From contig JBEKMY010000005.1 of the NCBI GenBank assembly GCA_049523355.1, forward strand, positions 28,148 through 92,147: DNA of 64,000 nucleotides. Direction: 5' to 3'. Below the pieces are notes generated by a model. It worked only from the letters and a program-made list of their open reading frames with translations. It made no database searches and had not been told where the DNA came from. Made by a program: the position numbers and the translations under genes. The stretch comes from Smithella sp. (GTDB taxonomy: Bacteria > Desulfobacterota > Syntrophia > Syntrophales > Smithellaceae). Shown in pieces: positions 5,782-58,677 of the stretch (position 1 is the stretch's first letter; each line of letters begins with the position of its first letter).

Positions 5782-7088
5782 CTAGCCTTCCTGCGTCTCC
5801 ACACGGGACAGATTCTGGAAACTCGTATATTTATCCACGAAAGCAAGTTTAACAGTGTCGGTGGGACCGTTTCTTTGTTTCGCGATAATAATTTCCGCGA
5901 TGCCTTTTTCCGTATTTTCTTCCGATTTGTTATACACTTCGTCACGATAAATAAAAGCAATTGCGGGCGTCGGTTAGTACGGGTTTCCACTTGGCGGTTG
6001 AGCTGTGAGAGGGCGACAACCGGCACATTGAGTTCTTTAGCCAGAGCCTTCAGGGAACGGCTTATTTCCGATATTTCCTGTTCGCGTGAATCGCGATTAT
6101 TTCCTGAACGCATCAGTTGAATGTAGTCTACAACAATCAATCCGAGTCCCGAATCGGCTTTAAGTCTGCGTGACTTGGCCTTCATTTCCAAAACGGTAAT
6201 AGCGGCAGTATCATCAATGAAAAGAGGCGCGTCGGACAGACGGCCGGCAGCAGTCGTCAGTTTCGGCCAATCGGTTTCGCCCAGAAAACCTTTTCTTAAA
6301 CGCTGCGAGTCCACCTTGGCTTCAGAGGCCAGCAGTCTAAAAGCAAGCTGTTCCTTTGACATTTCCAGAGAAAAAACAGCGACAGGGATCTGACCCTCCA
6401 TTGCCGCATGCAGGCCGATGTTCAGGGCAAAAGCCGTCTTACCCATGCTGGGACGGCCGGCAATAATGATCAGTTCGGATTTCTGCAGGCCGGAAGTTAA
6501 ATCATCAATTTTTTCAAAACCCGTCGGCACTCCGGTAATCAGTTCTTTGCGGGCATAGAGATCTTCAATTGACCTGAAACTGTCTTTGACAATTTCCCTT
6601 ATCGGGGAAAAGGCCGGACGCACTTTATTCTCGGAAATTTCAAAAATGCTGTGCTCGGCTTTATCCAGGATATCATCAACATCGGAACCCGTTTCATAGC
6701 AACTGCCTATAATTTCGGTTGCCGAAGTGATTAGCCCGCGGAGAATCGCTTTTTCCTTTACAATCTTGGCATAGTTAGCGACGTTGGCGGCAGAGGGAAC
6801 ATTATCCACCAAAGAAGAAATATATAACTGTCCGCCGACCGAATCCAGCATATTTTTGCCTTTGAGGGCATTGCTTAAAGTAATAAGATCGACCGGCTCG
6901 TTTCTTTCGGAGAGTTCGATGATGATGCTAAAAAGTTTCCGGTGAGCTTCACTGTAAAAATCACCGGGAGATAGAATTTCGAGCACGCTGTTAATAGCGT
7001 TATTTTCCAACAGGATACTGCCCAGTATCGACTGTTCAGCTTCGATATTCTGCGGTGGAAGCTTATGTATTGACAGGTCCATGCTCAT
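5782..7088 (-). pseudogene. dnaB: Replicative DNA helicase DnaB with a disrupted frame near nt 5956: a conserved motif block is missing and the C-terminus lies in another frame
   Basis: ORF 5691..7088 has the DnaB N-domain, Walker A GRPSMGKT, Walker B LIVVDYIQLM and [19 protein letters not shown], followed by a nonsense Lys/Arg-rich tail. Hand translation of a shifted frame from 5955 down to stop 5782-5784 gives the canonical end [57 protein letters not shown]. The ~17-aa block SDLRESGxIEQDADxxM expected between the two parts is absent. Confidence 0.7.
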
Positions 7089-34991: not shown

Positions 34992-35023
34992 TTGACTTGT
35001 TAAAATAACACCGTTATTTTAAC
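34992..35023 (+). promoter_or_regulatory. Sigma70-type promoter (TTGACT-17 nt-TATTTT) overlapped by a perfect 11-3-11 palindrome; candidate TetR operator
   Basis: TTGACT lies at 34992-34997. GTTAAAATAAC-acc-GTTATTTTAAC lies at 34999-35023. An AAGGAG RBS and the TetR-gene ATG (35053) follow. Confidence 0.5.
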
Positions 35024-35052
35024 GTCGCTATTTTAAAGATAAGGAGCCGCTA

Positions 35053-35724: not shown

Positions 35725-35779
35725 ACATAGGCGATAAGAGAATTATTAAATTTTTTATTTTAATTTGGAGATAAAACAC

Positions 35780-38743
35780 ATGCAAGATGCCCAAAAAAGT
35801 TTTACGAATACACTGGCCAATCTGTTTTTTAAATTCTTCGCCTTTAATTTCAACACGCGTCCGTCATTAAATAAATATCTGAGGTGCGATGACGGCCCTC
35901 TCAATTTCACGTTTGGCATAAAAACAGAAAACGGCAGTGTTGAACAAGCCATATGCTTTGAAAACGGCAAGGTCAGCGTATTGAATAAATTTCCGGAAAA
36001 ACTGGACTCGCAGCTTATATTTGTCGATGAAAACGCGGTCAAAGAAGCGGCCACACAGCCTCCCAACAGACTGATGCTGGCCTTGATGGAAAACAGAATA
36101 GTCATGCACGGCAACCTTGGTTATCTTCAACTGGTTAATTTTTATCTTTCGCTGCTTTTAAAACACATCCAGATCGTTAAACTGAAAAAAGAAACAAAAA
36201 TGGAGAATCGAAAATACGACGCCCAAGCGGCAGCAAAAAACAGCATTGACGGAAGATCATTGCGTCAACTCAAGGCCGGCTCTATTGATCCGGGCGTTAA
36301 GTTTTTGCCCGACCCCTATCTCGCGGAGTATTCCCTGAATGACTTTCCGAGAGTAAAGGATTTTCTGTACATCCATTTAAAGACCCGAGCGGCAATATGC
36401 CATGAGCGGGCCCAGATATTGACCGAATGGTACAGAGAGAATGGATTTGAAACCGATAAAAACGGGAAACCATTCGTTGCCGAACTCCGTCAGGCCCAGG
36501 CATTCAAATATCTGATGGAAAATAAAAAACCGATTATCAGAAACAATGATCTTATTGCCGGAACAAGTACCACCAAAGAAATTGGCGTTATCATCTATCC
36601 CGACGCGCACGGCACCATGATCTGGGGAGAACTGGTCACCGCGCCCTTCAGGCCGCTCAACCCCTATGATGTCGATCCTGAGACGATTGATGTTCTTCAC
36701 AACAAGGTATTTCCTTTCTGGCTTGGACGTAATTTTCGTCAATGGGTGAGAGACAATAAGGGTTATCCAACCTGTCAGAAACTCGACGAGCGCTTCGCCG
36801 CCTGTTTCTTATGGAAAACCGTCGCGCTGTCTCACACCATCTTAAATTATCCTGAAATATTAAACCTTGGCACAAATGGCATCATGGCAAATATAGATAA
36901 GGAACTAAGCAACACGCCGGAATCCGAACGGCAAAAGCACGATACGCTCCGGGCAATGAAAATCAGCCTTGAGGGAATAAATGCCTATGCGGAAAATCTT
37001 TCGATAGAAGCCCAGCGATTGGCAAAACGGGAAATGAAACCTGAACGCAAAAAGGAATTGCTTCATCTGAAGGATATCTGCCGTCGTGTTCCCCTGAATC
37101 CCTGCGTCACACTCGATGAAGCCGTGAATGCCATGTGGATAATGTGGATAGGCGTGCACATGGAAAACACAAACGCCGGATTCTCACTCGGACGGCTGGA
37201 TCAGTGGCTTCAACCTTATTTTGCGGCCGACATGGAAAAACTGACAAATAAAAAGGAGAGACAGGAATATATAAAGCACGCCATCGAACTTATCGGCTGC
37301 TTTTATATGCGTTGCACGGATCATCTGCCATTAATACCGGACATTGGCAACTATTTGTTCGGCGGCAGTTCCTCCGATCAGGCTATTACGCTAGGCGGAG
37401 TGACGCCGGGAGGTGAAGACGCGGTCAATGATATGACTTATATCTTTCTGAAAGTTACGGAAATGCTCTCCATCCGCGACCCCAATGTCAACGCCCGTTA
37501 CAATAACGGGAAAAACAGCGACACTTATTTAAAACGTCTCTGTGAAGTCAATTTAAATACCACAGCGACCCCTTCGATTCATAATGACGAGGCGGTCATG
37601 GCATCACTGGCTGAATTCAACTATCCTGCAGAGCATCTGCGGGACTGGTCAGCGACCGGTTGCGTGGAACCCACGCTCTCCGGCCGCCACATCGGTCACA
37701 CCAACTGCATGATGTTCAATATGGTGGCAGCCCTCGAAATGGCTCTCAATAACGGGCGGCACCCGTTGATGCGATGGGATTTGGGCCCAAAAACCGGCGA
37801 TGTCAGAACCGGAGACTTTCAGGATTATGAATCGTTCTTTAACGCGTTTGCGACACAGCTTCGATATCTGGCCGGCCAGACATGCCAATACAACAATTTT
37901 CTGGGCGAGGCTCATCAGGCCATCCGCCCGACCCCTTTTATCTCTTCCCTGATAGAAGGTTCGCTGAAAAACGGCAAAGACGTCACAAAAGGAGGCGCTC
38001 TTTACAACTCGTCAGGAACCGCGTGCATTGGCCTTGCCGACATCACCGATTCACTGATGGCTATTAAAAAATTTGTGTTTGAAGATAAAAAAGTTTCTTT
38101 CAGCGAACTACTAAATGCGGTTAACACCAACTTTAAAAACGATCCGGCCCTGCTTGCCTTAATCAAAAACAAGGCCCCGCTGTTCGGTTCCGGTAACCCC
38201 GAAGCTCTGGCGACAGCCAATCAGGTAGCAAAACTTGCCCATGACTGTTTTGGAGAACACGCCAATTACCGCGGCGGCCGATATACAGCGGGGTTCTGGT
38301 CCATGTCCAACCATGTGGCTTTCGGCACGTTGACAGGAGCGCTTCCTTCAGGACGGCTGGCCGGCAAAGCATTTACACCGGGACTGACGCCAGAAGCGCA
38401 CGCGTCCAAAAGCATTTTAGATAACATCCGTGATGTCGCCAAACTGGAGCCGAAAAACCTGAACAACAATATTGCCTTCAATGTGAAAGTTGTGCCCGGG
38501 GCGCATGAGACACATCAGGAAACCGTGGATAACATCTATTCATACGTGAAGACATACTGCAACCTCGGCGGCATGCAGATACAACTGAATGTCGTATCGT
38601 CAAAAACACTCAGAGACGCCATGGAACATCCCCAGAATTATCAGAATCTGCTTGTCAGGATATCAGGTTATAACGCCTACTTCGTGACTCTCAACAAAGA
38701 CATGCAGACAGAATTAATCGAAAGGGCGGAGTTCGGCATATGA
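35780..38743 (+). CDS. Glycyl-radical enzyme (PFL2/glycerol-dehydratase-like clade) with an N-terminal ~130-aa SCP2-like extension
   Basis: The Gly-radical motif is LLVRISGYNAYFVTL, near the C-terminus. The thiyl-Cys loop is WSATGCVEPTLSG (Cys-x-Glu). The N-terminal region NFTFGIKTENGSVEQAICFENGKVSV...DSQLIFVDENA...LMLALMENRIVMHGNLGYLQLVNFYL resembles SCP2 sterol-carrier folds. The start is chosen at ATG 35780, 9 nt after GGAG; the ORF track begins at TTG 35765. Confidence 0.85.
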   Translation: MQDAQKSFTNTLANLFFKFFAFNFNTRPSLNKYLRCDDGPLNFTFGIKTENGSVEQAICFENGKVSVLNKFPEKLDSQLIFVDENAVKEAATQPPNRLMLALMENRIVMHGNLGYLQLVNFYLSLLLKHIQIVKLKKETKMENRKYDAQAAAKNSIDGRSLRQLKAGSIDPGVKFLPDPYLAEYSLNDFPRVKDFLYIHLKTRAAICHERAQILTEWYRENGFETDKNGKPFVAELRQAQAFKYLMENKKPIIRNNDLIAGTSTTKEIGVIIYPDAHGTMIWGELVTAPFRPLNPYDVDPETIDVLHNKVFPFWLGRNFRQWVRDNKGYPTCQKLDERFAACFLWKTVALSHTILNYPEILNLGTNGIMANIDKELSNTPESERQKHDTLRAMKISLEGINAYAENLSIEAQRLAKREMKPERKKELLHLKDICRRVPLNPCVTLDEAVNAMWIMWIGVHMENTNAGFSLGRLDQWLQPYFAADMEKLTNKKERQEYIKHAIELIGCFYMRCTDHLPLIPDIGNYLFGGSSSDQAITLGGVTPGGEDAVNDMTYIFLKVTEMLSIRDPNVNARYNNGKNSDTYLKRLCEVNLNTTATPSIHNDEAVMASLAEFNYPAEHLRDWSATGCVEPTLSGRHIGHTNCMMFNMVAALEMALNNGRHPLMRWDLGPKTGDVRTGDFQDYESFFNAFATQLRYLAGQTCQYNNFLGEAHQAIRPTPFISSLIEGSLKNGKDVTKGGALYNSSGTACIGLADITDSLMAIKKFVFEDKKVSFSELLNAVNTNFKNDPALLALIKNKAPLFGSGNPEALATANQVAKLAHDCFGEHANYRGGRYTAGFWSMSNHVAFGTLTGALPSGRLAGKAFTPGLTPEAHASKSILDNIRDVAKLEPKNLNNNIAFNVKVVPGAHETHQETVDNIYSYVKTYCNLGGMQIQLNVVSSKTLRDAMEHPQNYQNLLVRISGYNAYFVTLNKDMQTELIERAEFGI

Positions 38744-40703: not shown

Positions 40704-41036
40704 TCATGCCCATCCTTCAGCCGCCAGCGCGTCGTGCAATTCATCAGGGTGGTGGCGGCACCGGAATTCAAGGCGGCTGGACTCGTTGTGCGCTTTGCTG
40801 TAAGGCAACCCTTTTGTCATGCGGTTGCGTTCGTGCAACTCATGCAACAGCACAAACCCCCTTTCCTTCTCCTCTATATCGTTGTCAATCCAGACCTCGT
40901 TCTTCGGAACGAATTCATAAACGTGGTCATGACCTCCGGTGGTGAAATCAATATCGAATACACTTCGCACCAGCCGGTCATTGACAATCCATACGCTTAC
41001 ACCATCCTCCAGTTTCTTCCATAAGCTTTCGTGCAC
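40704..41036 (-). CDS. Hypothetical protein (110 aa), second copy of a repeated ~90-aa domain; possibly the distal part of a decayed two-domain gene
   Basis: VWIVNDRLVRSVFDIDFTTGGHDHVYEFVPKNEVWIDN...FVLLHELHERNRM is clearly paralogous to the frame at 41094-41384. It has a GTG start without a recognisable RBS, and it is in the same frame as the upstream copy's TGA. Confidence 0.45.
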   Translation of the reverse strand: MHESLWKKLEDGVSVWIVNDRLVRSVFDIDFTTGGHDHVYEFVPKNEVWIDNDIEEKERGFVLLHELHERNRMTKGLPYSKAHNESSRLEFRCRHHPDELHDALAAEGWA

Positions 41037-41093
41037 CGCGTTAGCATCAGGAAGGTCTTTCCCGCGATGTGTCAGTTTGCGGACATCTCCGGC

Positions 41094-41418
41094 TCACCGC
41101 CTTACTTTGCGTTCAACCAGATCGGCCTGTGTAATTGCGTCGTCATATGACGCGCCTTTCGCCATGAGATCATGTTCCACCAGTAAGTGATCGATGAAGA
41201 AGACGTGTTCATCAGGCTTTGCTTCCCGGTCAAGCCAGAACTCATTTTTGGGTATGTAATGATATCTGTAGTGCTGGCCGAAGTTCGTGAATTCTTCGTC
41301 GATGTGGCCGCGAATGTATGCGCCATCTACTATCCAGACCTGATAATCACCCCGTGTTTCATCCTTCTTCAGATACGGTGGTTTAAGCTTCTCTGCCGTA
41401 GTATTTTCTCTTTGTCAT
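41094..41418 (-). pseudogene. First copy of the repeated domain, lacking an in-frame start: ATG 41418 opens an 11-codon frame that stops, and the homologous frame continues shifted by one nt
   Basis: Hand translation gives MTKRKYYGREA* in one frame. The neighbouring frame gives ...KPPYLKKDETRGDYQVWIVDGAYIRGHIDEEFTNFGQHYRYHYIPKNEFWLDREAKPDEHVFFIDHLLVEHDLMAKGASYDDAITQADLVERKVRR* (stop TGA 41094-41096). Confidence 0.5.
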
Positions 41419-41668: not shown

Positions 41669-44191
41669 TTAATGATCTACTTTGCGGTAAAATATTCTCT
41701 TAACCACTTCTGCCATAAATATATAAAGCATGACAATAAGACCCATCATCAATAGAAATGATACCGGCAGTAATGCAAAACCGAATATATAGCCCAACGG
41801 TGTAAAAGGCAGAACAAGAGTGGCCGCAACGATAATGATTGTGGCTATCACCAAATATTTTCCCGGACGGCTCTTAAAGAATGGCCTCCTGCTGCGAATG
41901 ACCAGAACGATAAGTGAAGCGGAAACAACTGATTCCATAAACCAGCCTGTTTGAAACTGCGCCTGTGTGGCATGCAGAATCCATATTAATACGCCGAAAG
42001 TCATGTAATCAAAAATAGAACTGACCAGGCCAAAGGTAATCATGAATTTTTTTATAAAAGCGATATCCCACCTGCGGGGCTTGTCAACCATTTCACTATC
42101 TACATTATCCGCGGCTATGGTCATTTCCGGAAAATCCGTCATCAGATTCGTCAAAAGTATCTGTTTGGGCAACAGGGGAAGAAAAGACAAAAACAGAGAA
42201 GCGCCGGCCATACTGAACATGTTCCCGAAATTAGCGCTGGTGGCCATAAAGACGTACTTCAGGGTATTGGCAAAGGTCGTCCTCCCTTCTCTCACCCCCT
42301 GCACTAAAACAGCAAGATCCTTTTCCATAAGTACTATATCGGCCGATTCCTTGGCTACATCCGCCGCCGTATCCACCGAAATGCCAACGTCCGCGGCATG
42401 AAGGGCTGAAGCATCATTAATTCCGTCCCCCATATATCCTACGACATGCCCCGCCTTCCTCAGCGCCAGAATAATTCGTTCTTTCTGGTTGGGTTCTATT
42501 TCCGCGAAAACATCCGTTTCCACCACTTTCCGTAAGAGGGCCGCATCGCTTATTTCATGTATTTCACTTCCGGAAAGAATTTTAGCCTCAGGCATCCCGA
42601 TATCATGGCTCACTTTGGCGGCAACAAGGCGGTTATCCCCCGTAACGATTTTCAGAGAAACACCAAGCTGTTTGAGATTAGCGATTGTTTCAGCAATTCC
42701 TTTTTTGGGCGGATCAAAGAAAAGAAGAAACCCGAGAAATATCATGTCGCGCTCAAGATCTTTATGAATAACAGATTCCACGCCCATATCCTTGTAAGCC
42801 AGACCGAGCAGGCGAAATCCCTGAGAGCTGAGCATTTCGAATCTCTGCTGGATCTGCTGCATGACCGAGGCTACGGCCACATTATCTCCCCCGGGAGTTT
42901 CAGCCAATGCACAAATGGAAAGGATATTGGGAATTGTTCCTTTCGTCACCATCAAATACCTGCTGTCTTTTTCAACCAGAATACTCAACCGCTTACGAAT
43001 AAAATCGTAAGGCACTTCATCCGCTTTTTTGTATCCGGAGATATCCTGCTGTTTGTAAGACAGAATTGCTTCATCAAGAGGATTGGTAAATCCCTGTTGA
43101 AAAAAAGCGTTCATGTACGCATGAAAGAATATTCTGTCACTTGGATTACCCTCGAGATCTAATGCCGAATTCATCGTTACTTTGCCTTCGGTCAGGGTTC
43201 CCGTCTTATCCGAGCACAGCACATCCATACTCCCGAAATTCTCAATTGCAGCCAGTCGCTTAACAATGACTCTTTGCGCGGCCATCTTTTTTGCGCCATG
43301 GGCCAGGTTAATGCTGATGATTGCCGGCAGCAGTTGTGGCGTCAGCCCAACGGCCAGAGCCAGCGAAAAAAGAAACGATTCCAAAACCGGTTTGTGGAAA
43401 AAAACATTGATCGCAAATACTATGACAACCAATGCTAAGGTAACTTCGAGCAGGAAGTATCCGAACTGCTGGATGCCGCGTTCAAACTCAGTTTCCTGAG
43501 GCCTTAACTTAAGCCTTTCGGATATTTTTCCGAATTCCGCCTGCTGTCCTGTGAAAACCACAACTGCCTTGCCTGTGCCACTGATGACATGAGTTCCCAT
43601 AAAGACGCAATTGGTGCGTCCGCTAAGCGGCGTTTCTGCCGGCAATAACCCGGCCGCCTTCTCGACAGGGTACGTTTCGCCGGTCAGAGTTGCTTCATCA
43701 ACAAAGAAATCCTTTGATTCAATAATCAGACCATCGGCCGGAATGGCATCTCCGGCATGCAATATAATAATATCTCCCGGCACAACATCTTCAAGAACAA
43801 TATCTGCCGTTTTCCCGTCACGAAAAACGGCAGTTTTGATACTGACGATGGCCAGTAACTTGTTGACAGCATCAACGGCGCCGCGTTCCTGCCAAAATCC
43901 CAAAAGGCCGCTGATCAAAACGATAAAAAGAATAATAACAGCATCTATGGGGTCTTGAAGGAAAAAAGACAACCCTGCGGCAAAAACAAGAGTCAGGATA
44001 ATAGGACTCTTGAACTGAGCAAGCAGCAGGGAAAGCGTATCTGATCTTTTGGGAGGCTTCAGCAGATTAGCGCCGTAGTCCATCAGACGCTGCTTGGCCT
44101 CCGGGCTGCTTAATCCTTCCGGCCTCGTGCAAAGCCCGGTCAGCAAGTCACTTTGAGTTACGCTCCAGTATGCGGGTGGTTGTTTAATCAT
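41669..44191 (-). CDS. mgtA: P-type ATPase, MgtA-like (type IIIB Mg2+-importing family)
   Basis: The phosphorylation site is CSDKTGTLT. Further motifs are TGE (LTGETYP), KIVTGDN and MGDGINDASAL. Length is 840 aa with about 10 TM segments. The Mg specificity is inferred from overall resemblance only. Confidence 0.75.
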   Translation of the reverse strand: MIKQPPAYWSVTQSDLLTGLCTRPEGLSSPEAKQRLMDYGANLLKPPKRSDTLSLLLAQFKSPIILTLVFAAGLSFFLQDPIDAVIILFIVLISGLLGFWQERGAVDAVNKLLAIVSIKTAVFRDGKTADIVLEDVVPGDIIILHAGDAIPADGLIIESKDFFVDEATLTGETYPVEKAAGLLPAETPLSGRTNCVFMGTHVISGTGKAVVVFTGQQAEFGKISERLKLRPQETEFERGIQQFGYFLLEVTLALVVIVFAINVFFHKPVLESFLFSLALAVGLTPQLLPAIISINLAHGAKKMAAQRVIVKRLAAIENFGSMDVLCSDKTGTLTEGKVTMNSALDLEGNPSDRIFFHAYMNAFFQQGFTNPLDEAILSYKQQDISGYKKADEVPYDFIRKRLSILVEKDSRYLMVTKGTIPNILSICALAETPGGDNVAVASVMQQIQQRFEMLSSQGFRLLGLAYKDMGVESVIHKDLERDMIFLGFLLFFDPPKKGIAETIANLKQLGVSLKIVTGDNRLVAAKVSHDIGMPEAKILSGSEIHEISDAALLRKVVETDVFAEIEPNQKERIILALRKAGHVVGYMGDGINDASALHAADVGISVDTAADVAKESADIVLMEKDLAVLVQGVREGRTTFANTLKYVFMATSANFGNMFSMAGASLFLSFLPLLPKQILLTNLMTDFPEMTIAADNVDSEMVDKPRRWDIAFIKKFMITFGLVSSIFDYMTFGVLIWILHATQAQFQTGWFMESVVSASLIVLVIRSRRPFFKSRPGKYLVIATIIIVAATLVLPFTPLGYIFGFALLPVSFLLMMGLIVMLYIFMAEVVKRIFYRKVDH

Positions 44192-44612: not shown

Positions 44613-46778
44613 TTGCGTAAATCCTATGATTTGGAGAGCACAGTGGACAATAAAAACAGATACGATATTAAATACCTGTTTGAACCTCAAAGCATTGCCG
44701 TTATCGGCGCTTCACAGGACAAAAAGAAGATCGGCTATGCCATATTTAACAATATAATTTCCGGCGGATATAAGGGGAAAGTATTCCCCATAAGTCCTAA
44801 GGGCGGCGATATTGACGGGCATAAAGTATTTACTGATGTTCTGGAAGTCCCGGATGATATTGATTGCGCGTCAATTGTGATTCCGTCGGGTCTTGTAAAG
44901 AACGCGGTAAAAAACTGCGCTCAAAAGAAAGTCAAATTCATTCAGATCATAACTTCCGGATTTTCAGAGATTGGAAATGTCCGGGAAGAAAACGAGATTG
45001 CTGAAATTGCCAAAGCAGCGGGAACGCGCATCGTGGGCCCGAATATGTTTGGTCTCTACTCCTCGGCAGCGTCGCTAAACGCCACTTTCTCCGCTGACAG
45101 AATAAATCCGGGCCATGTTGCCATACTCACGCAAAGCGGCGCGCTGGGAATCGCGATGATCGCAAAAAGCTCCATTGCCAACATGGGACTTTCCACCATC
45201 ATCTCGATCGGGAACAAATGCGATGTTGATGAAGCCGACCTTCTTGATTATCTCATCCATAATGACAATACAAAAGTTATTTTTATATATATTGAAGGCG
45301 TAAAGAAGGGGGAGCGGCTGATCGAAACCCTAAAGGCTGCCACCGGTAAAAAACCTGTTATCGTCATAAAGTCTGGAAAATCGAAAAGAGGAGCACAGGC
45401 CGCCGCTTCGCACACGGGATCGCTGGCGGGCTCGGATGAAATATTCGATGCTATCATGAAACAGTGCGGGGTACTCCGGGCCGAATGCCTTGGGGACGCA
45501 TTCAACTGGTGCCAATTCATGATTTCGACCACTGCTCCCAAAAACTACAACAGCGTGATAGTGACGAACGGAGGAGGCGTAGGGGTTATGGCTACCGACG
45601 CGTGCGAAAAGTACGGAGTTCCATTATATGATAATCAATCCGCGTTAAAGAACCTCTATGATGCTGTTACACCTTCGTTCGGATCAACAAAAAATCCTAT
45701 CGATCTTACAGGAACGGCCGACGCGACGGATTACACGCGCGCCCTTTCAATCGCGGCCGAGTCCGGAGAAATGGGTTCCACAATCGGGCTTTACTGCGAA
45801 ACAGCGATTATGGATTCCAGTAATCTCTCTCAGATGATAACCGATACTTACACGATCCATAAGAAAAGCGGCAAATCCATCAGCTATGCTCTGATTGGCG
45901 GTGCGCAGGTTGAAGGCGCTATAGAGTCTCTGAGAACCGCCAGCATTCCTGTTTTTAACGATGTGGAGCAGGCCGTGTCGTGCATCGGAGCATTCTATAG
46001 ATACTACAAATATATCGATGAAGTATCTTATAAATTTGATGAATACGAAGTAGACGTAATGGCGATCAATAAGATTATAGACGGAGCATTAAAGGACGGG
46101 AGAACCTTTTTTCTTGCAAACGAGGGAGCGGCTTTAATGCGGATTGCGGGCATTGCAATTCCGCAAAGCAGAATCGCACATAATATAGACGAGGCGGTGA
46201 AGTTCGCCGAAGAGATCGGATACCCGGTCGTGATGAAGATTGTATCGAAAGACATTTTACATAAGAGCGATGCGGGCGGGGTTTTACTGGACATTGATAA
46301 CAAAAAGGAAGTTATTGATGGTTATGAAGTGATCATGCATAAATGCAGGGAGTATAAAACCAACGCTGTTATTGAGGGCATTGAAGTCACCGAGATGGCA
46401 AAGAAGGGCGTTGAGCTTATTGTCGGCGCGAGGAGAGATCCGTCATTCGGCCCGGTCGTCATGTGCGGGCTCGGAGGCATTTATGTGGAAGTAATGAAGG
46501 ATATATCGTTTCGGGCTATCCCCATAAACCGCGGCACCGCGCTTTCCATGCTCGAAGAAATCAGATCTTATCCGTTGCTTCTCGGCGCGAGAGGAGAGGA
46601 GAAGAAGGACATTGAGGCTGTTATAGATATAATCATTAAAATAAGTTCCATTATTAAAAAATGTGAAAGGATTACTGATATAGAAATAAATCCTGTAGTT
46701 GTGTATGATATTAAAAACGGCCTCAAGGCTTTAGACGCGAGGATTTTGATTAGCAAACCGAAGGAGAATATACAATGA
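44613..46778 (+). CDS. ADP-forming acyl/acetyl-CoA synthetase (fused alpha-beta; CoA-binding, succinyl-CoA-synthetase-like and ATP-grasp domains)
   Basis: LFEPQSIAVIGAS is the CoA-binding Rossmann fold. GPNMFG...SQSGALG are ligase-CoA motifs. The C-terminal ATP-grasp reads GYPVVMKIVS.DILHKSDAGGV. The likely true start is GTG 44643, 5 nt after GGAGAG. Confidence 0.85.
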   Translation: MRKSYDLESTVDNKNRYDIKYLFEPQSIAVIGASQDKKKIGYAIFNNIISGGYKGKVFPISPKGGDIDGHKVFTDVLEVPDDIDCASIVIPSGLVKNAVKNCAQKKVKFIQIITSGFSEIGNVREENEIAEIAKAAGTRIVGPNMFGLYSSAASLNATFSADRINPGHVAILTQSGALGIAMIAKSSIANMGLSTIISIGNKCDVDEADLLDYLIHNDNTKVIFIYIEGVKKGERLIETLKAATGKKPVIVIKSGKSKRGAQAAASHTGSLAGSDEIFDAIMKQCGVLRAECLGDAFNWCQFMISTTAPKNYNSVIVTNGGGVGVMATDACEKYGVPLYDNQSALKNLYDAVTPSFGSTKNPIDLTGTADATDYTRALSIAAESGEMGSTIGLYCETAIMDSSNLSQMITDTYTIHKKSGKSISYALIGGAQVEGAIESLRTASIPVFNDVEQAVSCIGAFYRYYKYIDEVSYKFDEYEVDVMAINKIIDGALKDGRTFFLANEGAALMRIAGIAIPQSRIAHNIDEAVKFAEEIGYPVVMKIVSKDILHKSDAGGVLLDIDNKKEVIDGYEVIMHKCREYKTNAVIEGIEVTEMAKKGVELIVGARRDPSFGPVVMCGLGGIYVEVMKDISFRAIPINRGTALSMLEEIRSYPLLLGARGEEKKDIEAVIDIIIKISSIIKKCERITDIEINPVVVYDIKNGLKALDARILISKPKENIQ

Positions 46779-47842
46779 AAAAAATAGTTGTTTCTTCAAT
46801 CAGAAGCAATGCCGGCAAAACAAGCATCATCGCGGGAATAATCTCTTCGCAAAAAGATAAGAAATTCGCTTACGCCAAGCCGTTGGGTGACAGATTGATC
46901 TATCGCAGAAAACGAAGCTGGGATTACGACGCGAGTTTAATGGTCAGTCTTCTTGAGCGCGAAGGCGAATTGGAAAGCCACTATGAGAAGATTACGCTCG
47001 GCTTTGACCATTCCAAACTAAGATACATGTACGATCAGGAAGGTATAAAGACAGCTCTTTCCGATATCGTAACAAATATCGGAGGCAAAAACGATGTGCT
47101 CCTTATTGAAGGCGGAAAAGACTTTTCGTGCGGAGCGTACGTCAATCTTGATCCGGTATCCATTGCAAAATATATTGACGGCACGCTCGTAATTGTCGTG
47201 AGCGGCGACAACGATTCCATTATTGATGATATCAAATTCATTGAAAAATATATGAAGATAATAGACGCCGATTTCGGCGGCGTTATCATCAACAAGGTAA
47301 CCGATGTTGAAGCATTTGAGAATTTCTTTGCACCGAGTATAAAAGAGATGGGCATTAATATTATCGGCGTTATCCCTTATGAAGCGCAATTAACCTACTT
47401 TACGCTTGATTTTCTGGCGGAAAAGCTCTTCGCCAGAGTGCTTACCGGTGAAGAACACCTTAAAAAAGTCGTTAAGAGTATAATCATCGGCGCACCGTCC
47501 GATACCTGCCCTGATACTGATCCGCTTTTTACCAAACAGTGCGTAAGCAGGGAAAATCAATTGATGATAACCGGCGGCGAAAGAAGCGATATGATACTTG
47601 CGGCTCTGGAACGGGACACCATCGGTATTATACTCACCAACGATATCGTTCCGCATCATCATATCATTTCCAGAGCTAAAGAGAAAGGCATACCTATCCT
47701 TCTTGTAAACATGGACACGTTCATAACCGCCAAGACTATTGACGATATGGAAGCTCTGCTCAAAAAAGACGATACGGAGAAAATTGAGCTTTTGTCTGAG
47801 TTGATTGAAAAATATACGCGTATAAAAGACTTCCTGACATAG
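46775..47842 (+). CDS. Pta-N-terminal-like protein (P-loop/BioD-like domain plus DRTGG domain) without a phosphotransacetylase catalytic domain
   Basis: The N-terminus is MKKIVVSSIRSNAGKTSIIAGI. The DRTGG-type motif is LMITGGERSDMILAAL...IGIILTN. The start overlaps the upstream stop (ATGA). Confidence 0.65.
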   Translation: MKKIVVSSIRSNAGKTSIIAGIISSQKDKKFAYAKPLGDRLIYRRKRSWDYDASLMVSLLEREGELESHYEKITLGFDHSKLRYMYDQEGIKTALSDIVTNIGGKNDVLLIEGGKDFSCGAYVNLDPVSIAKYIDGTLVIVVSGDNDSIIDDIKFIEKYMKIIDADFGGVIINKVTDVEAFENFFAPSIKEMGINIIGVIPYEAQLTYFTLDFLAEKLFARVLTGEEHLKKVVKSIIIGAPSDTCPDTDPLFTKQCVSRENQLMITGGERSDMILAALERDTIGIILTNDIVPHHHIISRAKEKGIPILLVNMDTFITAKTIDDMEALLKKDDTEKIELLSELIEKYTRIKDFLT

Positions 47843-50529: not shown

Positions 50530-51315
50530 TTACGACGCTGATAATCCACCATCCACGGGGAAAATACCGCCGGTAACGTAATTGGAAGCCCTGGATGCCA
50601 AAAAGACAGCCAGTCCCTTTATATCGTCCTCTTCTCCATACATCTTGAGCGGAATCGCGTTAACAGTCAAATCAAGGATTGGTTTCATTTCCGGCTTGAA
50701 CAAATGAGCCATCATATCGGTCTTGAAAAATCCAGGCGCTATACAGTTTACATAAATCTTGTACCGGGCTAATTTAGCAGCGAGCGTCTTGGTTAAACCC
50801 TCCACTGCGAACTTGGAAGGATTATAGGCCACGGCCGGATGCTCTTCTTCATTGGAACCGCGCGAACCGTAGATCGAAGAAACATTGATCATCTTGCCTC
50901 CGCCTTTTTCCTTCATGATCCGGGCAACCAACTGAGATAAAATCCAGACACCCCTGATATTGATGTCGAATACCTTTTCCCATTTATCCAGCGGGAAATC
51001 CAGCGTGGGCGCGCCCCAGGTAAATCCGGCATTGTTGACTAATATATCAATCGTGCCAAATTTATCCATGGTAGCCTTGACCAGATTTTCAATATCTTCC
51101 TTCTTGGCCAAATCGCACTTAACCGCCAGAGCCTTGATGCCCAACTTTTCGAGTTCCTGCACTTCTTTTTCCAGGTTCTCCAGCTTGCGTGAAGCAATCA
51201 CCAGATTAGAACCGGCTTCAGCCAGACCGGCAGCCATAAATTTACCAATGCCTCTTCCGCCGCCTGTAACGATGGCAACCTTGCCTTTTAAATCAAACAA
51301 ATCCTTTATATTCAT
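50530..51315 (-). CDS. Short-chain dehydrogenase/reductase (FabG/gluconate-5-dehydrogenase-like)
   Basis: Motifs are VTGGGRGIGKFMA, NNAG and Y..SK (YNPSKFAV). Confidence 0.85.
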   Translation of the reverse strand: MNIKDLFDLKGKVAIVTGGGRGIGKFMAAGLAEAGSNLVIASRKLENLEKEVQELEKLGIKALAVKCDLAKKEDIENLVKATMDKFGTIDILVNNAGFTWGAPTLDFPLDKWEKVFDINIRGVWILSQLVARIMKEKGGGKMINVSSIYGSRGSNEEEHPAVAYNPSKFAVEGLTKTLAAKLARYKIYVNCIAPGFFKTDMMAHLFKPEMKPILDLTVNAIPLKMYGEEDDIKGLAVFLASRASNYVTGGIFPVDGGLSAS

Positions 51316-54181: not shown

Positions 54182-54955
54182 TCATCGTCCAATCACATAC
54201 CGGTGCGGATCAACTTCCTCTCTGAGGATTTTCAGTTCGATTTCAGTCGGTGGCGCTGTTTCCGTTATCTTAGGCGCTTTGAGTAACTCAAATCCGCAGT
54301 TGTCCTGAACATCCTTCAGTGAATAGCCGGGATTGATGGAGATAATGCGCATCCGCTTGCTTTCCGGCTCGAAGTCCATCACAGCCATGTTAGTAAAAAC
54401 CTTGTAAGGCCCGGTTCCCGGGGGAAGTCCCGCCTCGTTCCGGCTGTTGCCGCCCTGAAGCCATCCCGGCGTGGTGATGAACTCGCACTTTTCCACAAAG
54501 CGTCTGGCATCCTGGACGGTCAAAACCATCATCTTCCAGCAGAAACTGCCGAAATCATTTGCTCCGCCGCTGCCGGGAAAACGAACCTTGGGCTTAGCGT
54601 GGGTTCCTCCAATATACGTAGAATTCAGGTTGCCATACATGTCGATCTGGGCGCCGCCCAGAAAGGTGTAATCGACATATCCCCTTTGACAGGTATCCAT
54701 AATGGCACCCATGGTAGAAACCATGACCGCCTTGTGACCCGCTCGTGAATCGCCTACGGAAATAGGCATCTCAGGCAGTTGCGGACTGATACTTCCGGCT
54801 TCAAACAGAATTGATAAGCTCGGCGAGTTCAGCTTCTGCGCCAGCATGGCCGCGGCACAGGGGGCGCCGGTACCCACGGCCAGCGTTGAGCCGTCCTCCA
54901 GTTCCCTTGCAGCGACACAGATCATCAGTTCCATGGCATTATATTGCAGTGTCAT
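54182..54955 (-). CDS. CoA-transferase family I, beta subunit (glutaconate/3-oxoacid CoA-transferase B-like)
   Basis: 257 aa. The N-terminal part is ELMICVAARELEDGSTLAVGTG.P, followed by ...SILFEAGSI. It overlaps the stop of the alpha subunit by 1 nt. Confidence 0.75.
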   Translation of the reverse strand: MTLQYNAMELMICVAARELEDGSTLAVGTGAPCAAAMLAQKLNSPSLSILFEAGSISPQLPEMPISVGDSRAGHKAVMVSTMGAIMDTCQRGYVDYTFLGGAQIDMYGNLNSTYIGGTHAKPKVRFPGSGGANDFGSFCWKMMVLTVQDARRFVEKCEFITTPGWLQGGNSRNEAGLPPGTGPYKVFTNMAVMDFEPESKRMRIISINPGYSLKDVQDNCGFELLKAPKITETAPPTEIELKILREEVDPHRYVIGR

Positions 54956-55953
54956 TAGTCAGCCTCCTTGTGCAGCAGGTGTTCAATCGTTCTGAGTTTG
55001 AGCATTTTTTCCATGCCGCCATTCTTGTTGATATACTCGTGATGATTTTTGCAGCTATAAATGTTTTTTTGTAAGAATTCCTTGAAGGCCACAGGGTCTT
55101 CCTCGACCTTCAACCACTCCTGTAAATGTTCTTCGTCGGAAAAGTACTCATAAACCATGTTGCCCGGATAGTTTCCAAAAGGCACTTCACAGACTGCATC
55201 GACAAGGAAATAGGGTATCGTCGTTTCCGTGGGACTTCTGCGTATCTCTTCGTTGGTAATCAGGCGTTCGCAGGTGATGATCAGCCGCTTGGAGGCCCGG
55301 GCCAGATCGTCGTCCGACTTCATGATGCCTCGGATCCGGGCATTCCCATAAACATCCGACTCGTGAACGTGGATGATGGCCACATCCGGGTAAAGTGCCG
55401 GTTGAAGGGCAAGTCTCTTGCCGGTATAGGGGCACTCAATGATCTTGCTGGCGCTGTATTCAAAGGTATCTGTGCCTAAAAGATTGCGCGTGGGTATGAA
55501 GGGAACGCCCATGGCGGCTGCTCGAAGCCTCGCCGAAAGGCTGTAATTCGTCCACTCGGTCACTCTAACCTTGCCGGTCTGCATGTATTTTCTGGCGCAG
55601 GGTGACAGCCCCCGTGCCTCCAGACCGACAATATAACCTGCATCCACTCGGTCAAACACTTCTCCCGCGCTCAGAATCTCGAAATCATGGGTGGTCGTAT
55701 GCCCTGCAAATCCCATGTGTTTGCGACCCTGTCTGAGAATCTCATGACAGGCGGCAATCGGGGCTCGATTTCCACCAAACCCTCCCAGCCCCAGATAGTC
55801 ACCGTCATGGACGAAGGTCTCGATGGCCTTTGTAAGCGGCATGACTTTGTTTATCATCTTCCTGGGTTTTCGCCGGAATATCTCTCTGGCATGATCCGGG
55901 TCAGGATCGGTAAACAACTCTCCGTTGCCTTCCTTAATAACGTTCATAGCCAT
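54955..55953 (-). CDS. CoA-transferase family I, alpha subunit (GctA-like)
   Basis: ...KVMPLTKAIETFVHDGDYLGLGGFGGNRAPIAACHEILRQGRK... is typical of GctA/AtoD-type subunits. The start is placed at MAMNVIK, after GAGGAG; the ORF track extends to 55989. Confidence 0.75.
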   Translation of the reverse strand: MAMNVIKEGNGELFTDPDPDHAREIFRRKPRKMINKVMPLTKAIETFVHDGDYLGLGGFGGNRAPIAACHEILRQGRKHMGFAGHTTTHDFEILSAGEVFDRVDAGYIVGLEARGLSPCARKYMQTGKVRVTEWTNYSLSARLRAAAMGVPFIPTRNLLGTDTFEYSASKIIECPYTGKRLALQPALYPDVAIIHVHESDVYGNARIRGIMKSDDDLARASKRLIITCERLITNEEIRRSPTETTIPYFLVDAVCEVPFGNYPGNMVYEYFSDEEHLQEWLKVEEDPVAFKEFLQKNIYSCKNHHEYINKNGGMEKMLKLRTIEHLLHKEAD

Positions 55954-56039
55954 GGGCTCCTCTTCATTAATCATCACTTGTGCTTTCATTGCTAGTTCTT
56001 CTTCCTTAAGTATTGTCTTATATTTTCCTGTATAAAGTT

Positions 56040-56879
56040 CTATAGCGTGAGCAGATCGATTCCGCCGGTAACCGGGATCACTGCTCCGGTAATGTATGAA
56101 GCCGCATCGGAGACCAGGAAAGCCACCACCTGGGCCACTTCTTCCGGACGGCCCAGGCGCTTGAGGGCAGTCCGTTTCGCAATGCGCTCAGTCATCCGTT
56201 CATCGTACAGTTTTACTGCTTCGGTGGCGATGAAACCCGGGCAGACTGTGTTGACTGTGATACCGTACCGGCCGGCCTCAATGGCCAGTGATTTGCTCAA
56301 CCCGATCAGCCCGGCTTTGGTCGCACCGTAGGATGGCTGCAGAGAAGCCCCCATAAGTGCCGCTACCGAGGAGATATTGATGATCCGGCCCCAGCCTTTA
56401 TGCACCATGCTTGACCACACTGCCTTGCTGCAGTTGTAAGCGCCAGTGAGATTCACCTTCAGATCGCGTTCCCAACGCTCAAGCTTCTGCTCGTCAAATT
56501 TTCCCAGGTTGTCCATCACTGCAGCATTATTTACGAGTATATCAATAGGCCCAAGTTGGACTTCTATCGCTTGGACTACCCTTTTGATCTCTTCGTGGAC
56601 AGTCACATCGAGCTTCATGGCGACGCTTTTTGACCCCATTGCCTGAATCTCCTGAACTGTTTGCAATGTTTTGACTTCACCGGACTGTGAAAAATGTCCG
56701 GCCAGTATGCTGTATTCACTCAACGCCTTGGCATCATATTCGGCGTCCTCAATCAAAAGATCCGTTACCGCAACAGCCGCACCAGCCTGCCCCAGCGCCA
56801 GAGCAATGGCTCTTCCCAAGCCGCGGGAAGCACCTGTCACCAGGGCTACCTTCCCTTCAAGATTCATCAATATCGGCAT
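56040..56879 (-). CDS. Short-chain dehydrogenase/reductase (SDR 1 of 3 in tandem)
   Basis: Motifs are VTGASRGLGRAIA, NNAA and YGATK. The start is set at MPILMNLEGK to avoid overlap with the upstream SDR. Confidence 0.85.
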   Translation of the reverse strand: MPILMNLEGKVALVTGASRGLGRAIALALGQAGAAVAVTDLLIEDAEYDAKALSEYSILAGHFSQSGEVKTLQTVQEIQAMGSKSVAMKLDVTVHEEIKRVVQAIEVQLGPIDILVNNAAVMDNLGKFDEQKLERWERDLKVNLTGAYNCSKAVWSSMVHKGWGRIINISSVAALMGASLQPSYGATKAGLIGLSKSLAIEAGRYGITVNTVCPGFIATEAVKLYDERMTERIAKRTALKRLGRPEEVAQVVAFLVSDAASYITGAVIPVTGGIDLLTL

Positions 56880-56890
56880 ATCATTTTCTC

Positions 56891-57688
56891 TCAGTGGAAT
56901 ACTGCCCCTCCGCATACATTTATGGCCTGACCGGTGATGCCCTTAGCATCATCGGAGGCCAGGAACACTGCCATAACGGCGATCTCCTGCACTTCAAGGA
57001 ACCGGTTCTGAAGACACTTGGCCTTCCCCATTGCAATCACCTGTTCCCTGGTCATATGGTACTGATCGGCTATCTGCTCTATTGCGCCTCCCGACCCCAG
57101 CACCAGATCGGTGGCCACGATGCCCGGGCAGATGGCATTGACGGTTATCTGCGGGTATCCGGCCATAGCTGCCTCGTGGGCCACGGTTCTGGTCATGCCC
57201 ACCAGCGCATGCTTGGCCGCGGTGTAGGAGCTGTTCTGAATGCTCGCCTGCTTGGCCTGAATGGATGCCATGGTAATGATCCTTCCCCATCCCTGCTCCA
57301 TAATCTTGGGGAGAAAGGCCTTGGTGCAGTTGTAGTTGCCGAAGAGATGCACCTCGATGGTCCTTCGCCAGTCGCCATCATCGGCCTCCCAGATGTTGGC
57401 GCGGTGGCCCTCGACGCCGGCATTGTTCACGAGGATATGGATTTTTCCGAATGCGTCCATGGTTTTCTCAACACCCTTGTTCACATCCGCAGGATTGGTT
57501 ACATCCATAACCGTTGTGATCGCCTTGCCTCCGTGCTTGATAATTTCATCGGCAATAGTTTTAGCGGACCCGGCATCGATATCGGCAACAACTACATCCG
57601 CGCCCTCTTCCGCAAAGGCCAGACAAATGGCGCGTCCTATGCCATTTCCACCACCAGTAACAACCGCAACCTTATCTTTCAATCGCAT
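56891..57688 (-). CDS. Short-chain dehydrogenase/reductase (SDR 2 of 3)
   Basis: Motifs are VTGGGNGIGRAIC, NNAG and YTAAK. The ATG at 57688 lies 7 nt after AGAGGTG. Confidence 0.85.
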   Translation of the reverse strand: MRLKDKVAVVTGGGNGIGRAICLAFAEEGADVVVADIDAGSAKTIADEIIKHGGKAITTVMDVTNPADVNKGVEKTMDAFGKIHILVNNAGVEGHRANIWEADDGDWRRTIEVHLFGNYNCTKAFLPKIMEQGWGRIITMASIQAKQASIQNSSYTAAKHALVGMTRTVAHEAAMAGYPQITVNAICPGIVATDLVLGSGGAIEQIADQYHMTREQVIAMGKAKCLQNRFLEVQEIAVMAVFLASDDAKGITGQAINVCGGAVFH

Positions 57689-57879: not shown

Positions 57880-58677
57880 TTAATAAAATGCAGTGCCTCC
57901 GCATACATTGATGGCCTGACCCGTTATGCCCCTGGCCGCGTCGGAAGCAAGATAAACAACCATATCTGCGATTTCGTCCGGTTCAATAAGTCGTTTTAAC
58001 AAAGATACCTGGGGAAGTTGTTTAGTAAGAACGATTTCTCTTGTCGTGCCTGTAATCCTGGCAACTTCATCCAGAAGCCCGCCTTTCTCGGTCACCATCT
58101 CAGTATTGCCCACGCCCGGACAAATTGCGTTGACGGTGATTTCAGTTAGACCCAGAAGGCTAAGCTCCATAGCCAGTGTTCTGGTTATACCGACAATGCC
58201 GTGCTTGGAGGCGCAATAAGCAGAACTTGTCGGGCTGCCGTTTTTACCGGAAACTGAAGATAAATTTATGACGCGCCCTTTGCCGTTTTTAATGATTAAA
58301 GGCAATACCGCTTTGGTCATATTATATGTTCCAATTAAATTGACCTCGATGGTTTTTCGCCAGTCGTTATCATCCGCCTCCCAAAGAAAAGACCGTTTTG
58401 GTAAAATACCGGCGTTATTCACCAGGATATCGATGCGTCCGAAAACTTCTATGGCTGTGTTGACCATATTTTTTATCTGTTCGGGAGAAGTAATATCTGC
58501 AATGAGTCCAATTGCCTTTTGACCCATTTGTTTAATTTCAGATGCTGTGCCTTCAATATCCTTCCCCATATCAACGGCAACAATCGTTGCGCCTTCCCTG
58601 GCAAGCGCCAACGCAATCGCCTTGCCGAAGCCTCTCTGCGCACCCGTAATCACCGCTACCTTATCTTTTAGTTTCAT
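57880..58677 (-). CDS. Short-chain dehydrogenase/reductase (SDR 3 of 3)
   Basis: Motifs are ITGAQRGFGKAIA, NNAG and YCASK. It is a close paralogue of SDR 2. Confidence 0.85.
   Translation of the reverse strand: MKLKDKVAVITGAQRGFGKAIALALAREGATIVAVDMGKDIEGTASEIKQMGQKAIGLIADITSPEQIKNMVNTAIEVFGRIDILVNNAGILPKRSFLWEADDNDWRKTIEVNLIGTYNMTKAVLPLIIKNGKGRVINLSSVSGKNGSPTSSAYCASKHGIVGITRTLAMELSLLGLTEITVNAICPGVGNTEMVTEKGGLLDEVARITGTTREIVLTKQLPQVSLLKRLIEPDEIADMVVYLASDAARGITGQAINVCGGTAFY

Follow-up and report, generated by a model that had tools for sequence, protein, structure and literature searches.

Which reaction is catalysed by a glycyl radical enzyme (GRE) that carries a lipid-carrier domain of the SCP2 type at its N-terminus? 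The question is raised by a stretch of 64,000 nucleotides from a Smithella genome (GenBank assembly GCA_049523355.1, contig JBEKMY010000005.1, positions 28,148 to 92,147 of the forward strand), which we call the window. Between positions 34990 and 40694 of its forward strand lie four co-directional genes that encode a TetR-family repressor, the SCP2-bearing GRE, a GRE activating enzyme (activase, AE) and a short-chain dehydrogenase/reductase (SDR). We have found that the fusion of SCP2 domain and GRE is, to judge from the sequences of its relatives, fixed in a large uncharacterised family, and that in its fold and its Cys-x-Glu/His catalytic residues the GRE core agrees with the diol dehydratases, which are C-O-cleaving 1,2-eliminases. 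The reading that we favour, if only by a modest degree, is that of a predicted radical 1,2-eliminase that acts on an amphiphilic substrate under the control of a TetR repressor with a conserved tandem-palindrome operator.

Is the N-terminal segment a SCP2 domain at all? A preliminary description of this DNA had noted about 130 SCP2-like residues in front of the core, and the strings quoted there, NFTFGIKTENGSVEQAICFENGKVSV and LMLALMENRIVMHGNLGYLQLVNFYLSLL, lie within residues 41-129 (inside nucleotides 35780-36200). We aligned 32 diverse N-termini of SCP2-bearing GREs, the relatives coming from two sources, a search with the N-terminus and an exhaustive scan that covered 1.84 billion representatives. 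The Pfam family SCP2 (PF02036) was matched by 15 of the 32 N-termini at E values up to 1 (best 4.6e-6), and each of the other Pfam families was matched by at most one of them. When a profile of the 32 sequences was compared with the PDB, the top three sequences were rabbit and human SCP2 (1c44, 1qnd and 2c0l, E about 0.003), and the alignment to 1c44 extends through the terminal 'GN' helix.

The AlphaFold2 (AF2) model of residues 1-160 (predicted local confidence, pLDDT, 89; predicted template-modelling score, pTM, 0.76) has the SCP2 alpha/beta fold, that is, a five-stranded sheet covered by helices and ending in the 'GN' helix, and the SCP2 domain proper comprises residues 8-126 or thereabouts. 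In a Foldseek search with this model, ranks 1-42 were all SCP2-fold chains, with a probability of 0.99-1.00 for ranks 1-41. The matches include UbiJ-SCP2 (6h6p, E 8e-6), SCP-2L (6z1w and 1ikt), yeast or fungal and insect SCP2 and also the SCP2-like C-terminal domains of the alkylsulfatases SdsA1 and Pisa1 (2cfu, 2yhe). The order of strands and helices in the SCP2 part is the same in the model of the full-length protein (pLDDT 86, pTM 0.90). Because of this pTM, to be read with the core alone making up about 80% of the chain, we think that the SCP2 domain probably packs on the core. Of the 987 residues of this model, solved GREs align over about 816-870 columns at most, and none of them covers the SCP2 part. 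Thus profile and fold searches alike find SCP2; the family profile, the Pfam matches of the relatives and the AF2/Foldseek comparison bear out the SCP2-like N-terminus, and on the strength of the models the domain is a genuine SCP2 fold.

The architecture is shared by 97 clusters, defined at 90% identity, of proteins of about 980-1005 aa with the motifs GCVE(P/A)T and RISGYNAYF. Their identity to the window protein is 36-98% in the N-termini and 62-98% in the cores. Among the 1.84 billion representatives, SCP2 domains of this type were found at protein N-termini only; the full-length matches inspected in the exhaustive scan were all GREs, and most of the other matches were short fragments.

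Does the family belong to a GRE clade of known function? The window protein fails to reach the cut-off of any NCBIfam equivalog model (bits/cut-off: HypD 412/1100, HpsG/HpfG 383/1000, CutC 376/1050, PRK09983 369/1109, IAD 267/1100, HPAD 193/1150, PFL 130/994) and also stays below that of the generic PFL2/glycerol dehydratase subfamily TIGR01774 (504 bits, cut-off 678). PRK09983 is named formate C-acetyltransferase, and we take it to represent the E. coli PflD/YbiW type. Because of these scores and of an identity of 26-28% to the structurally nearest solved enzymes (propanediol and glycerol dehydratases, CutC and HypD), we place the window GRE outside the clades of known function. The preliminary description had also stated that no characterised GRE with a SCP2 fusion was known; this still holds for the searchable literature and for a GRE review of June 2026, which lists no lipid-domain GRE and in which whole clades are unvalidated (PMC13450708). 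Among 8.4 million full texts none links a GRE with SCP2 in a relevant way, and the searchable literature likewise gave nothing relevant that connects GREs with sterol carriers, with polyethylene glycol or ethers, or with ether lipids.

An assignment to the X-succinate synthases or decarboxylases was considered and rejected: the best BSS/MASS structures reach 183-215 bits and HPAD 128 bits, far under the eliminases, and the small-subunit genes of these enzymes were not found near the GRE. A GRE for limonene described in 2025 from Syntrophales, with an isoprenoid substrate, is not a match either, being an X-succinate synthase of a different class that lacks the Cys-x-Glu (CXE) motif.

What chemistry can be expected from the core? 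Pfam assigns its residues 201-849 to the PFL-like family (PF02901, 586 bits) and residues 865-969 to Gly_radical (PF01228, 89 bits), both far above cut-off. The radical motif RISGYNAYF and the GCVEP loop, on which the preliminary description had relied, are both present in the 987-aa protein: the Cys loop is G627-C628-V629-E630-P631 (nucleotides 37658-37672), and the radical motif, invariant in the family, occupies residues 960-968 with Gly963 at nucleotides 38666-38668. The CXE motif is common to GRE eliminases and isomerases (PMC13450708, sections 5.6-5.7). In a Foldseek search the core aligned to propanediol and glycerol dehydratases with a TM score, normalised to the target, of 0.91-0.92 (E about 1e-52), and the best sequence match among the solved structures was A. 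fulgidus PFL2 (2F3O, 363 bits).

We analysed the conservation of the active site in 38 family members (57-100% identity, Clostridia to Desulfobacterota) and numbered it by alignment to glycerol dehydratase (GD, 1R8W). Cys628 and Glu630, the counterparts of GD Cys433 and Glu435, are invariant, Pro631 is nearly so, and His352, also invariant, takes the place of GD His164. A. fulgidus PFL2 and the diol dehydratases likewise have a His at this position, whereas an Asp is found there in K. pneumoniae CutC and a Glu in HpyG. The GD residues His281/Ser282, Tyr339, Asp447 and Tyr640 are those which contact glycerol. In the family they correspond to Ala466 (nearly invariant) and Gly467 (invariant), to Asp533 within an invariant GGSSSDQ, to Asn642 (nearly invariant) and to Trp840 (invariant). 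This set of specificity residues (A466/G467, D533, N642 and W840) is unlike those of GD, propanediol dehydratase (PD), CutC or HpyG and is fixed from Clostridia to Desulfobacterota.

In the full-length model the pLDDT falls below 50 only at residues 530-532, 845-853 and 861-869 (nucleotides about 37367-37375 and 38312-38386). These stretches are invariant active-site loops, namely the SSS of GGSSSDQ and the loop after FWSMSNH, and might serve a bulky substrate as mobile gates.

Some distant SCP2-bearing GREs have other loops. The subfamilies P0109, P0145, P0191, P0214 and P0116 (our labels) have Cys loops such as NGCVEPG and CGCTEPV, and in some distant homologues GGSSSDQ is replaced by GGASSTQ or SGAPTATA, so that SCP2-bearing GREs may form an entire clade whose specificities differ. 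Two further distant proteins of about 1000 aa, P0148 and P0177, have lost the catalytic Cys (AGAAAPA, AGDGGPV) as well as the Gly motif (RVGACCARF, RSAGAGALF); they may be pseudo-enzymes that retain the SCP2 domain.

Which genes accompany the GRE in other genomes? A scan of one genome per species found GRE relatives in 204 stretches; the best 80 of the 204 loci were retrieved and examined, and for the neighbourhood analysis open reading frames (ORFs) were called and clustered in 88 loci. Partner statistics were limited to loci with at least 3 kb of upstream and at least 4 kb of downstream DNA. The best 80 loci come from Smithella and other Smithellaceae, Desulfobacterales, Desulfosudaceae, Desulfomonilia, Spirochaetota/Leptospirales, Bacteriovoracaceae, Myxococcota and rumen or digester Clostridia. 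The best relative in the set, from the Smithella and Smithellaceae loci, has 92% identity, for which reason we regard the window as Smithella-like; the DNA sequencing runs that contain the window sequence are peat metagenomes.

The partners of the GRE change with its divergence. With a GRE at least 85% identical to that of the window, the classical SDR is found in 6/6 loci and a second, extended SDR in 1/6. At 66-85% identity the figures are 19/24 and 17/24. Of the 30 loci whose GRE has 66% identity or more, 26 contain one or both SDRs. The families matched by the extended SDR are Epimerase, 3-beta-HSD and NAD_binding_4 (fatty-acyl reductase). At 62-65% identity we find instead a divergent AOR (tungsten-type aldehyde:ferredoxin oxidoreductase) together with a polyferredoxin in 13 of 14 loci; below 62% an AOR is found in one of nine. 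In two Firmicutes loci (L069 and L086) the activase, GRE, ferredoxin and AOR genes are co-directional and abut or overlap, and in L076 and L082 the AOR gene lies directly 3' of the GRE gene. In Mogibacterium and Anaerovoracaceae loci, this place is taken by an aldo-keto reductase with an Fe-S domain. The strongest argument on the nature of the product is this partner switching: since the place next to a GRE whose active site stays unchanged is filled by carbonyl oxidoreductases of three unrelated families, the comparison points to an aldehyde or ketone as the product of the window GRE.

In seven loci (L001, L025, L028, L031, L032, L036 and L037, from Desulforegula, Desulforapulum, Desulfatitalea and related metagenome-assembled genomes, MAGs) the two SDRs are fused into one polypeptide of about 620-630 aa, encoded 3' of the activase gene. 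Such a fusion of an extended and a classical SDR (a Rosetta stone) suggests that both reductases act on the same pathway.

The substrate is less easily read from the neighbours. Among the 14 loci at 62-65% identity we see an AMP-dependent acyl-CoA ligase in 13, MlaE in 13, a FGGY kinase in 12, an EEP-family phosphoesterase in 10 and a FadE-like acyl-CoA dehydrogenase in 6; a RND pump also occurs in this AOR clade. The preliminary description had suggested a hydrophobic substrate, possibly a lipid. This is plausible and gains some support from MlaE, the acyl-CoA ligase, the FadE-like enzyme and the RND pump; these lipid-flavoured neighbours weigh less because all of them come from one syntenic clade of related MAGs. 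The FGGY kinase and a GlpA-like flavoprotein, considered as a hint of a glycerol co-product, were given no weight, each being confined to one lineage.

How is the operon regulated? The predicted operator consists of two tandem sites of the type TAACnnnGTTA. The first is a perfect 11-bp inverted repeat, GTTAAAATAAC-ACC-GTTATTTTAAC (34999-35023), which overlaps the -35/-10 region, and the second (35019-35031) is degenerate. In nearly all TetR-bearing loci the consensus ATAAC(A/G)nnGTTA-n3-4-TAAC(A/G)nnGTTAT lies directly 3' of TTGAC, and the motif persists in several phyla and in loci whose GRE is as little as 62% identical. On this comparison of sequences the motif would be a clear footprint of autoregulated repression, and it strengthens the earlier observation that the cluster has its own TetR repressor with an operator. 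A TetR gene is found in 71 of the 88 loci; its orthologues are 59-70% identical and lie directly 5' of the GRE gene in all five loci compared. The activase adjoins the GRE in 70 of the 88 loci and reaches 278 bits with NCBIfam TIGR02494 (cut-off 174).

How might the enzyme work? The CXE motif together with His352 fits the abstraction of a hydrogen atom from a carbinol carbon followed by the loss of an oxygen leaving group from the carbon next to it, according to published CXE logic (PMC13450708, sections 5.6-5.7). The activase would install the radical on Gly963. Cys628 would then abstract a hydrogen from the hydroxyl-bearing carbon, Glu630 would deprotonate the hydroxyl of that carbon and His352 would protonate the neighbouring oxygen leaving group (water or an alkoxide), after which a carbonyl product, most likely an aldehyde, would be released. 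As the polar head of the amphiphilic substrate enters the active site, the SCP2 domain would hold the hydrophobic tail or would draw the substrate out of a membrane or micelle. The carbonyl product would then be reduced or oxidised by the SDR, and in other lineages the AOR or the aldo-keto reductase would take over the same step. The TetR repressor would sit on the tandem palindrome over the promoter and let go when a hydrophobic ligand is present. Taken part by part, a 1,2-elimination that gives a carbonyl seems quite probable from the motifs and the partners. We hold it to be rather likely, given the modelled SCP2 fold, that the substrate is amphiphilic or hydrophobic with its tail handled by this domain, and from the gene neighbourhoods a catabolic role appears likely to a similar degree.

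Several observations weigh against such a lipid-acting eliminase. The N-terminus of the window protein itself has PF02036 as its top Pfam match, at E 0.013-0.03 and 15-16 bits, which is under the cut-off of 21.3 bits. SCP2 folds can serve purposes besides ligand delivery. The invariant polar residues of the pocket (D533, H640 and N642) would also suit a small polar substrate. The lipid-related neighbours (MlaE, the ligase, the FadE-like enzyme and the pump) may reflect ancestry and not function. Of the closer loci, 4/30 have no obvious carbonyl-handling neighbour, and the same is true of most rumen Firmicutes loci. Finally, the make-up of the cluster given in the preliminary description is confirmed as a conserved module, but the extended SDR that most close relatives have in addition is not in the window, which, like its nearest relatives, has the classical SDR only.

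Some of these points lead to the most serious competing explanation, namely that, like GD and PD, the enzyme has a small water-soluble diol or amino alcohol as its substrate, and that the SCP2 domain has a structural role or serves in oligomerisation, membrane tethering or activase docking. The structural distance of the core from the propanediol and glycerol dehydratases is indeed no greater than that between these enzymes (TM 0.92), the triad Cys/Glu/His is retained, polar residues are invariant in the pocket, and AOR and reductase partners also accompany pathways of small aldehydes. On the other hand, the GD pocket positions H281/S282, Y339, D447 and Y640 are all replaced, the protein is below every equivalog cut-off, and no microcompartment genes or genes of propanediol or glycerol utilisation are found nearby. 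In addition, TetR regulators typically sense hydrophobic ligands and fused SCP2 domains elsewhere serve hydrophobic substrates, as is well established for alkylsulfatases, MFE-2 and the UbiJ metabolon. We regard a small soluble substrate as unlikely, at perhaps the odds of an occasional surprise.

Two other explanations concern the purpose of the operon and the kind of reaction. The operon could be biosynthetic or serve remodelling, in which case the GRE would dehydrate the polar head of a membrane lipid of the cell itself and the aldehyde would be reduced by the SDR or SDRs, giving a modified lipid such as a deoxy-glycerol or 1,3-diol-type lipid, or a fatty alcohol. This would agree with the NAD(P)-dependent reductase-type partners in the clade of the window, with the families matched by the extended SDR and with the fusion of two SDRs in seven loci, as expected if one bound intermediate passes through consecutive steps. 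A TetR repressor that is dedicated to the operon and placed over its promoter is, however, typical of inducible catabolic or detoxification operons, and in other lineages the active site of the GRE is identical while its partners are an acyl-CoA ligase, an acyl-CoA dehydrogenase and an oxidising AOR, which has a catabolic look; a biosynthetic role thus seems improbable to us. Much the same must be said of a reaction other than net dehydration, that is, a radical cleavage of a C-O (ether) or C-N bond or an isomerisation, like those of YbiW/PflD/HplG or CutC, by which, for example, a glyceryl or glycol ether would release a fatty alcohol and a sphingoid base would release ammonia. In its favour, the CXE motif is shared by eliminases and isomerases, the invariant Asp533 aligns with the Phe of GYQPF in CutC as well as with GD Tyr339, and the EEP-family phosphoesterase (10 loci) and an amidohydrolase (one locus) would fit the release of a head group. 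We take the Phe of GYQPF to be Phe395, which contacts the ammonium group of choline. Yet at the position of GD His164 the enzyme has a His, like A. fulgidus PFL2 and the diol dehydratases and unlike K. pneumoniae CutC and HpyG, the links to the EEP phosphoesterase and the amidohydrolase are lineage-limited, and leaving groups cannot be told apart computationally. Such a reaction is in our opinion a rather poor bet.

How does the proposed lipid-acting 1,2-eliminase compare with known systems? With the B12-independent glycerol dehydratase of C. butyricum (1R8W/1R9D) and the propanediol dehydratases (R. inulinivorans 5I2A/5I2G; 9RCO) the window GRE shares the ten-stranded GRE barrel, the radical glycine, the GCVE loop and the equivalent of GD His164, and a dedicated activase with ferredoxin domains and an aldehyde-handling partner are also common to both. 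In contrast to these enzymes, it has about 185 extra N-terminal residues with a SCP2 fold found in no solved GRE, and it is under TetR control, whereas they belong to pdu/dha-type regulons or microcompartments. A. fulgidus PFL2 (2F3O) has the same His and GCVE loop, and its GGxxxxQ loop is likewise small and polar, but it is an archaeal protein of 776 aa without SCP2 domain. Its function is debated, glycerol dehydratase and alkylsuccinate synthase being the alternatives (PMC13450708, section 7). As in the window GRE, a SCP2 domain is joined to or works with a catalytic unit in SdsA1/Pisa1, peroxisomal MFE-2 (SCP-2L), the SCPx thiolase and UbiJ. In such enzyme-SCP2 fusions the task of the SCP2 domain is to bind or recruit alkyl, acyl or isoprenoid chains. 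There it is C-terminal or free-standing and its partners are hydrolases, beta-oxidation enzymes or hydroxylases, none of them radical enzymes, whereas in the window it is N-terminal to a GRE. Finally, YbiW/PflD, 1,5-anhydrohexitol-6-phosphate C-O lyases with a CXE loop, break a C-O (ether) bond beside a hydroxyl carbon by radical beta-scission and thus set a precedent for ether cleavage by the GRE fold, although their substrates are sugar phosphates and they lack a lipid domain.

As candidate substrates that would suit this chemistry we consider long-chain 1,2-diols, from which a fatty aldehyde would arise; 1-O-alkyl- or acyl-glycerols, with either a 3-alkoxy-propanal or a fatty alcohol and hydroxyacetone as products; sphingoid bases, which would yield a 3-hydroxy-aldehyde and ammonia; and alkoxyethanols, which would yield acetaldehyde and an alcohol. 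A bolder proposal, which we put forward as a long shot, is that this is the first lipid-acting GRE family, an O2-independent lyase or dehydratase of glyceryl-ether lipid heads (1-O-alkylglycerols, lyso-ether lipids and possibly archaeal-type ethers) or of sphingoid bases, which would yield an aldehyde and an alcohol or ammonia and would feed beta-oxidation. In the available text of two papers, the only enzyme reported to split alkylglycerols at their ether linkage is alkylglycerol monooxygenase, which depends on O2 and tetrahydrobiopterin (PMC9192799, PMC3617469). Since that enzyme is O2-dependent, a GRE for lipid ethers, if real, would be the missing anoxic route of ether-lipid turnover in peat, sediments, digesters and the rumen.

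The substrates of all characterised PFL-like GREs are either small soluble molecules or hydrocarbons that become added to fumarate (PMC13450708). What is new here is a GRE with an eliminase-type core, an undescribed architecture and, probably, an undescribed substrate class; if true, a GRE family with a built-in lipid carrier would extend radical 1,2-elimination to amphiphiles and lipids, a new substrate class for the superfamily. Members of the family come from rumen Clostridia, from Spirochaetota and from syntrophs and sulfate reducers (Smithella, Desulfobacterales, Desulfomonilia), organisms by which lipids and necromass are recycled in guts and digesters as well as in peat and sediments. 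For this reason the reaction could matter for anoxic carbon turnover.

The features of the operon and of the DNA downstream of it are collected in the table.

Table. Coordinates of the GRE operon, its parts and selected downstream genes in the window.
Feature	Position	Strand	Basis and remarks
Promoter and predicted TetR operator	34992..35031	+	-35 TTGACT 34992-34997; -10-like TATTTT 35015-35020; sequence reading and promoter scan
TetR-family repressor, 223 aa	35053..35724	+	Pfam TetR_N 46 bits (cut-off 24), TetR_C_33 42 bits, both above cut-off
Glycyl radical enzyme, 987 aa	ORF 35765-38743	+	Pfam; likely start ATG 35780 behind GGAG
SCP2-fold domain of the GRE, residues ~1-127	35780..36160	+	Profile, Pfam, AF2, Foldseek
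Helical and coil linker of the GRE, residues ~128-185	36161..36334	+	AF2: helices 128-141 and 148-157, coil to ~185
Catalytic core of the GRE, residues ~186-987	36335..38743	+	Pfam, alignment to 1r8w, Foldseek
GRE activating enzyme, 311 aa	38836..39771	+	TIGR02494, Pfam Radical_SAM and Fer4; radical SAM with two extra ferredoxin-type cluster motifs
Classical SDR, ORF 281 aa	39849..40694	+	Pfam adh_short PF00106 171 bits
Magnesium-translocating P-type ATPase	41669-44191	-	TIGR01524 816 bits, above cut-off
Acyl-CoA synthetase gene and overlapping neighbour	44613-46778 and 46775-47842	+	

The TetR, activase and SDR neighbours are as the preliminary description had them, according to Pfam and NCBIfam. 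The true start of the SDR is probably ATG 39861 or 39864, after GAGGAG, and tblastn matches of its orthologues begin at 39864. It carries TGGSSGIG and YSATK (the classical SDR signatures TGxxxGIG and YxxxK), and its orthologues, 60-68% identical, are encoded 3' of the activase in relatives. The earlier suggestion that it resembles membrane-associated ketoreductases was not upheld: it is a generic classical SDR without membrane segment (highest 19-residue hydropathy 1.28). Inside the operon, neither intrinsic terminators nor extra promoters rose above the shuffled background. Short contigs from four metatranscriptomes, several of them with zero mismatches, map to all four genes and cover, among others, nucleotides 35928-36307 in the SCP2 part of the GRE. 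These contigs tell that the sequence is present in RNA libraries and say nothing on the level of expression, and carry-over of DNA is possible.

Directly 3' of the SDR, two short ORFs on the reverse strand (40704-41418; 110 aa at 40704-41036 and an upstream fragment) lie outside the conserved GRE module. The magnesium P-type ATPase is convergent with the GRE operon and unrelated to the GRE in other loci. Further downstream, an ADP-forming acyl-CoA synthetase (CoA_binding, Succ_CoA_lig, ATP-grasp_5) is encoded; such a gene is found within about 5 kb of the SCP2-bearing GRE in 14 loci of both the SDR and the AOR clades. The product of the gene that overlaps it in the window is a DRTGG/AAA_26 protein without the Pta catalytic domain. 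Between 50530 and 58677 the reverse strand encodes three or four further classical SDRs (50530-51315, 56040-56915 and 57880-58677, with a tblastn match at about 56.9-57.7 kb) and, among them, a two-subunit CoA-transferase (54182-55989).

As to other loci, the N-terminus was also considered as a microcompartment-targeting element; this was rejected, since the gene clusters annotated by Pfam contain no shell-protein genes. In one Smithella MAG with a 60% identical GRE (L072), a SBF sodium/bile-acid symporter gene (5481-6851 of that locus) lies directly 5' of the activase and GRE genes, which is a hint of an amphiphilic substrate from a single, paralogous locus.

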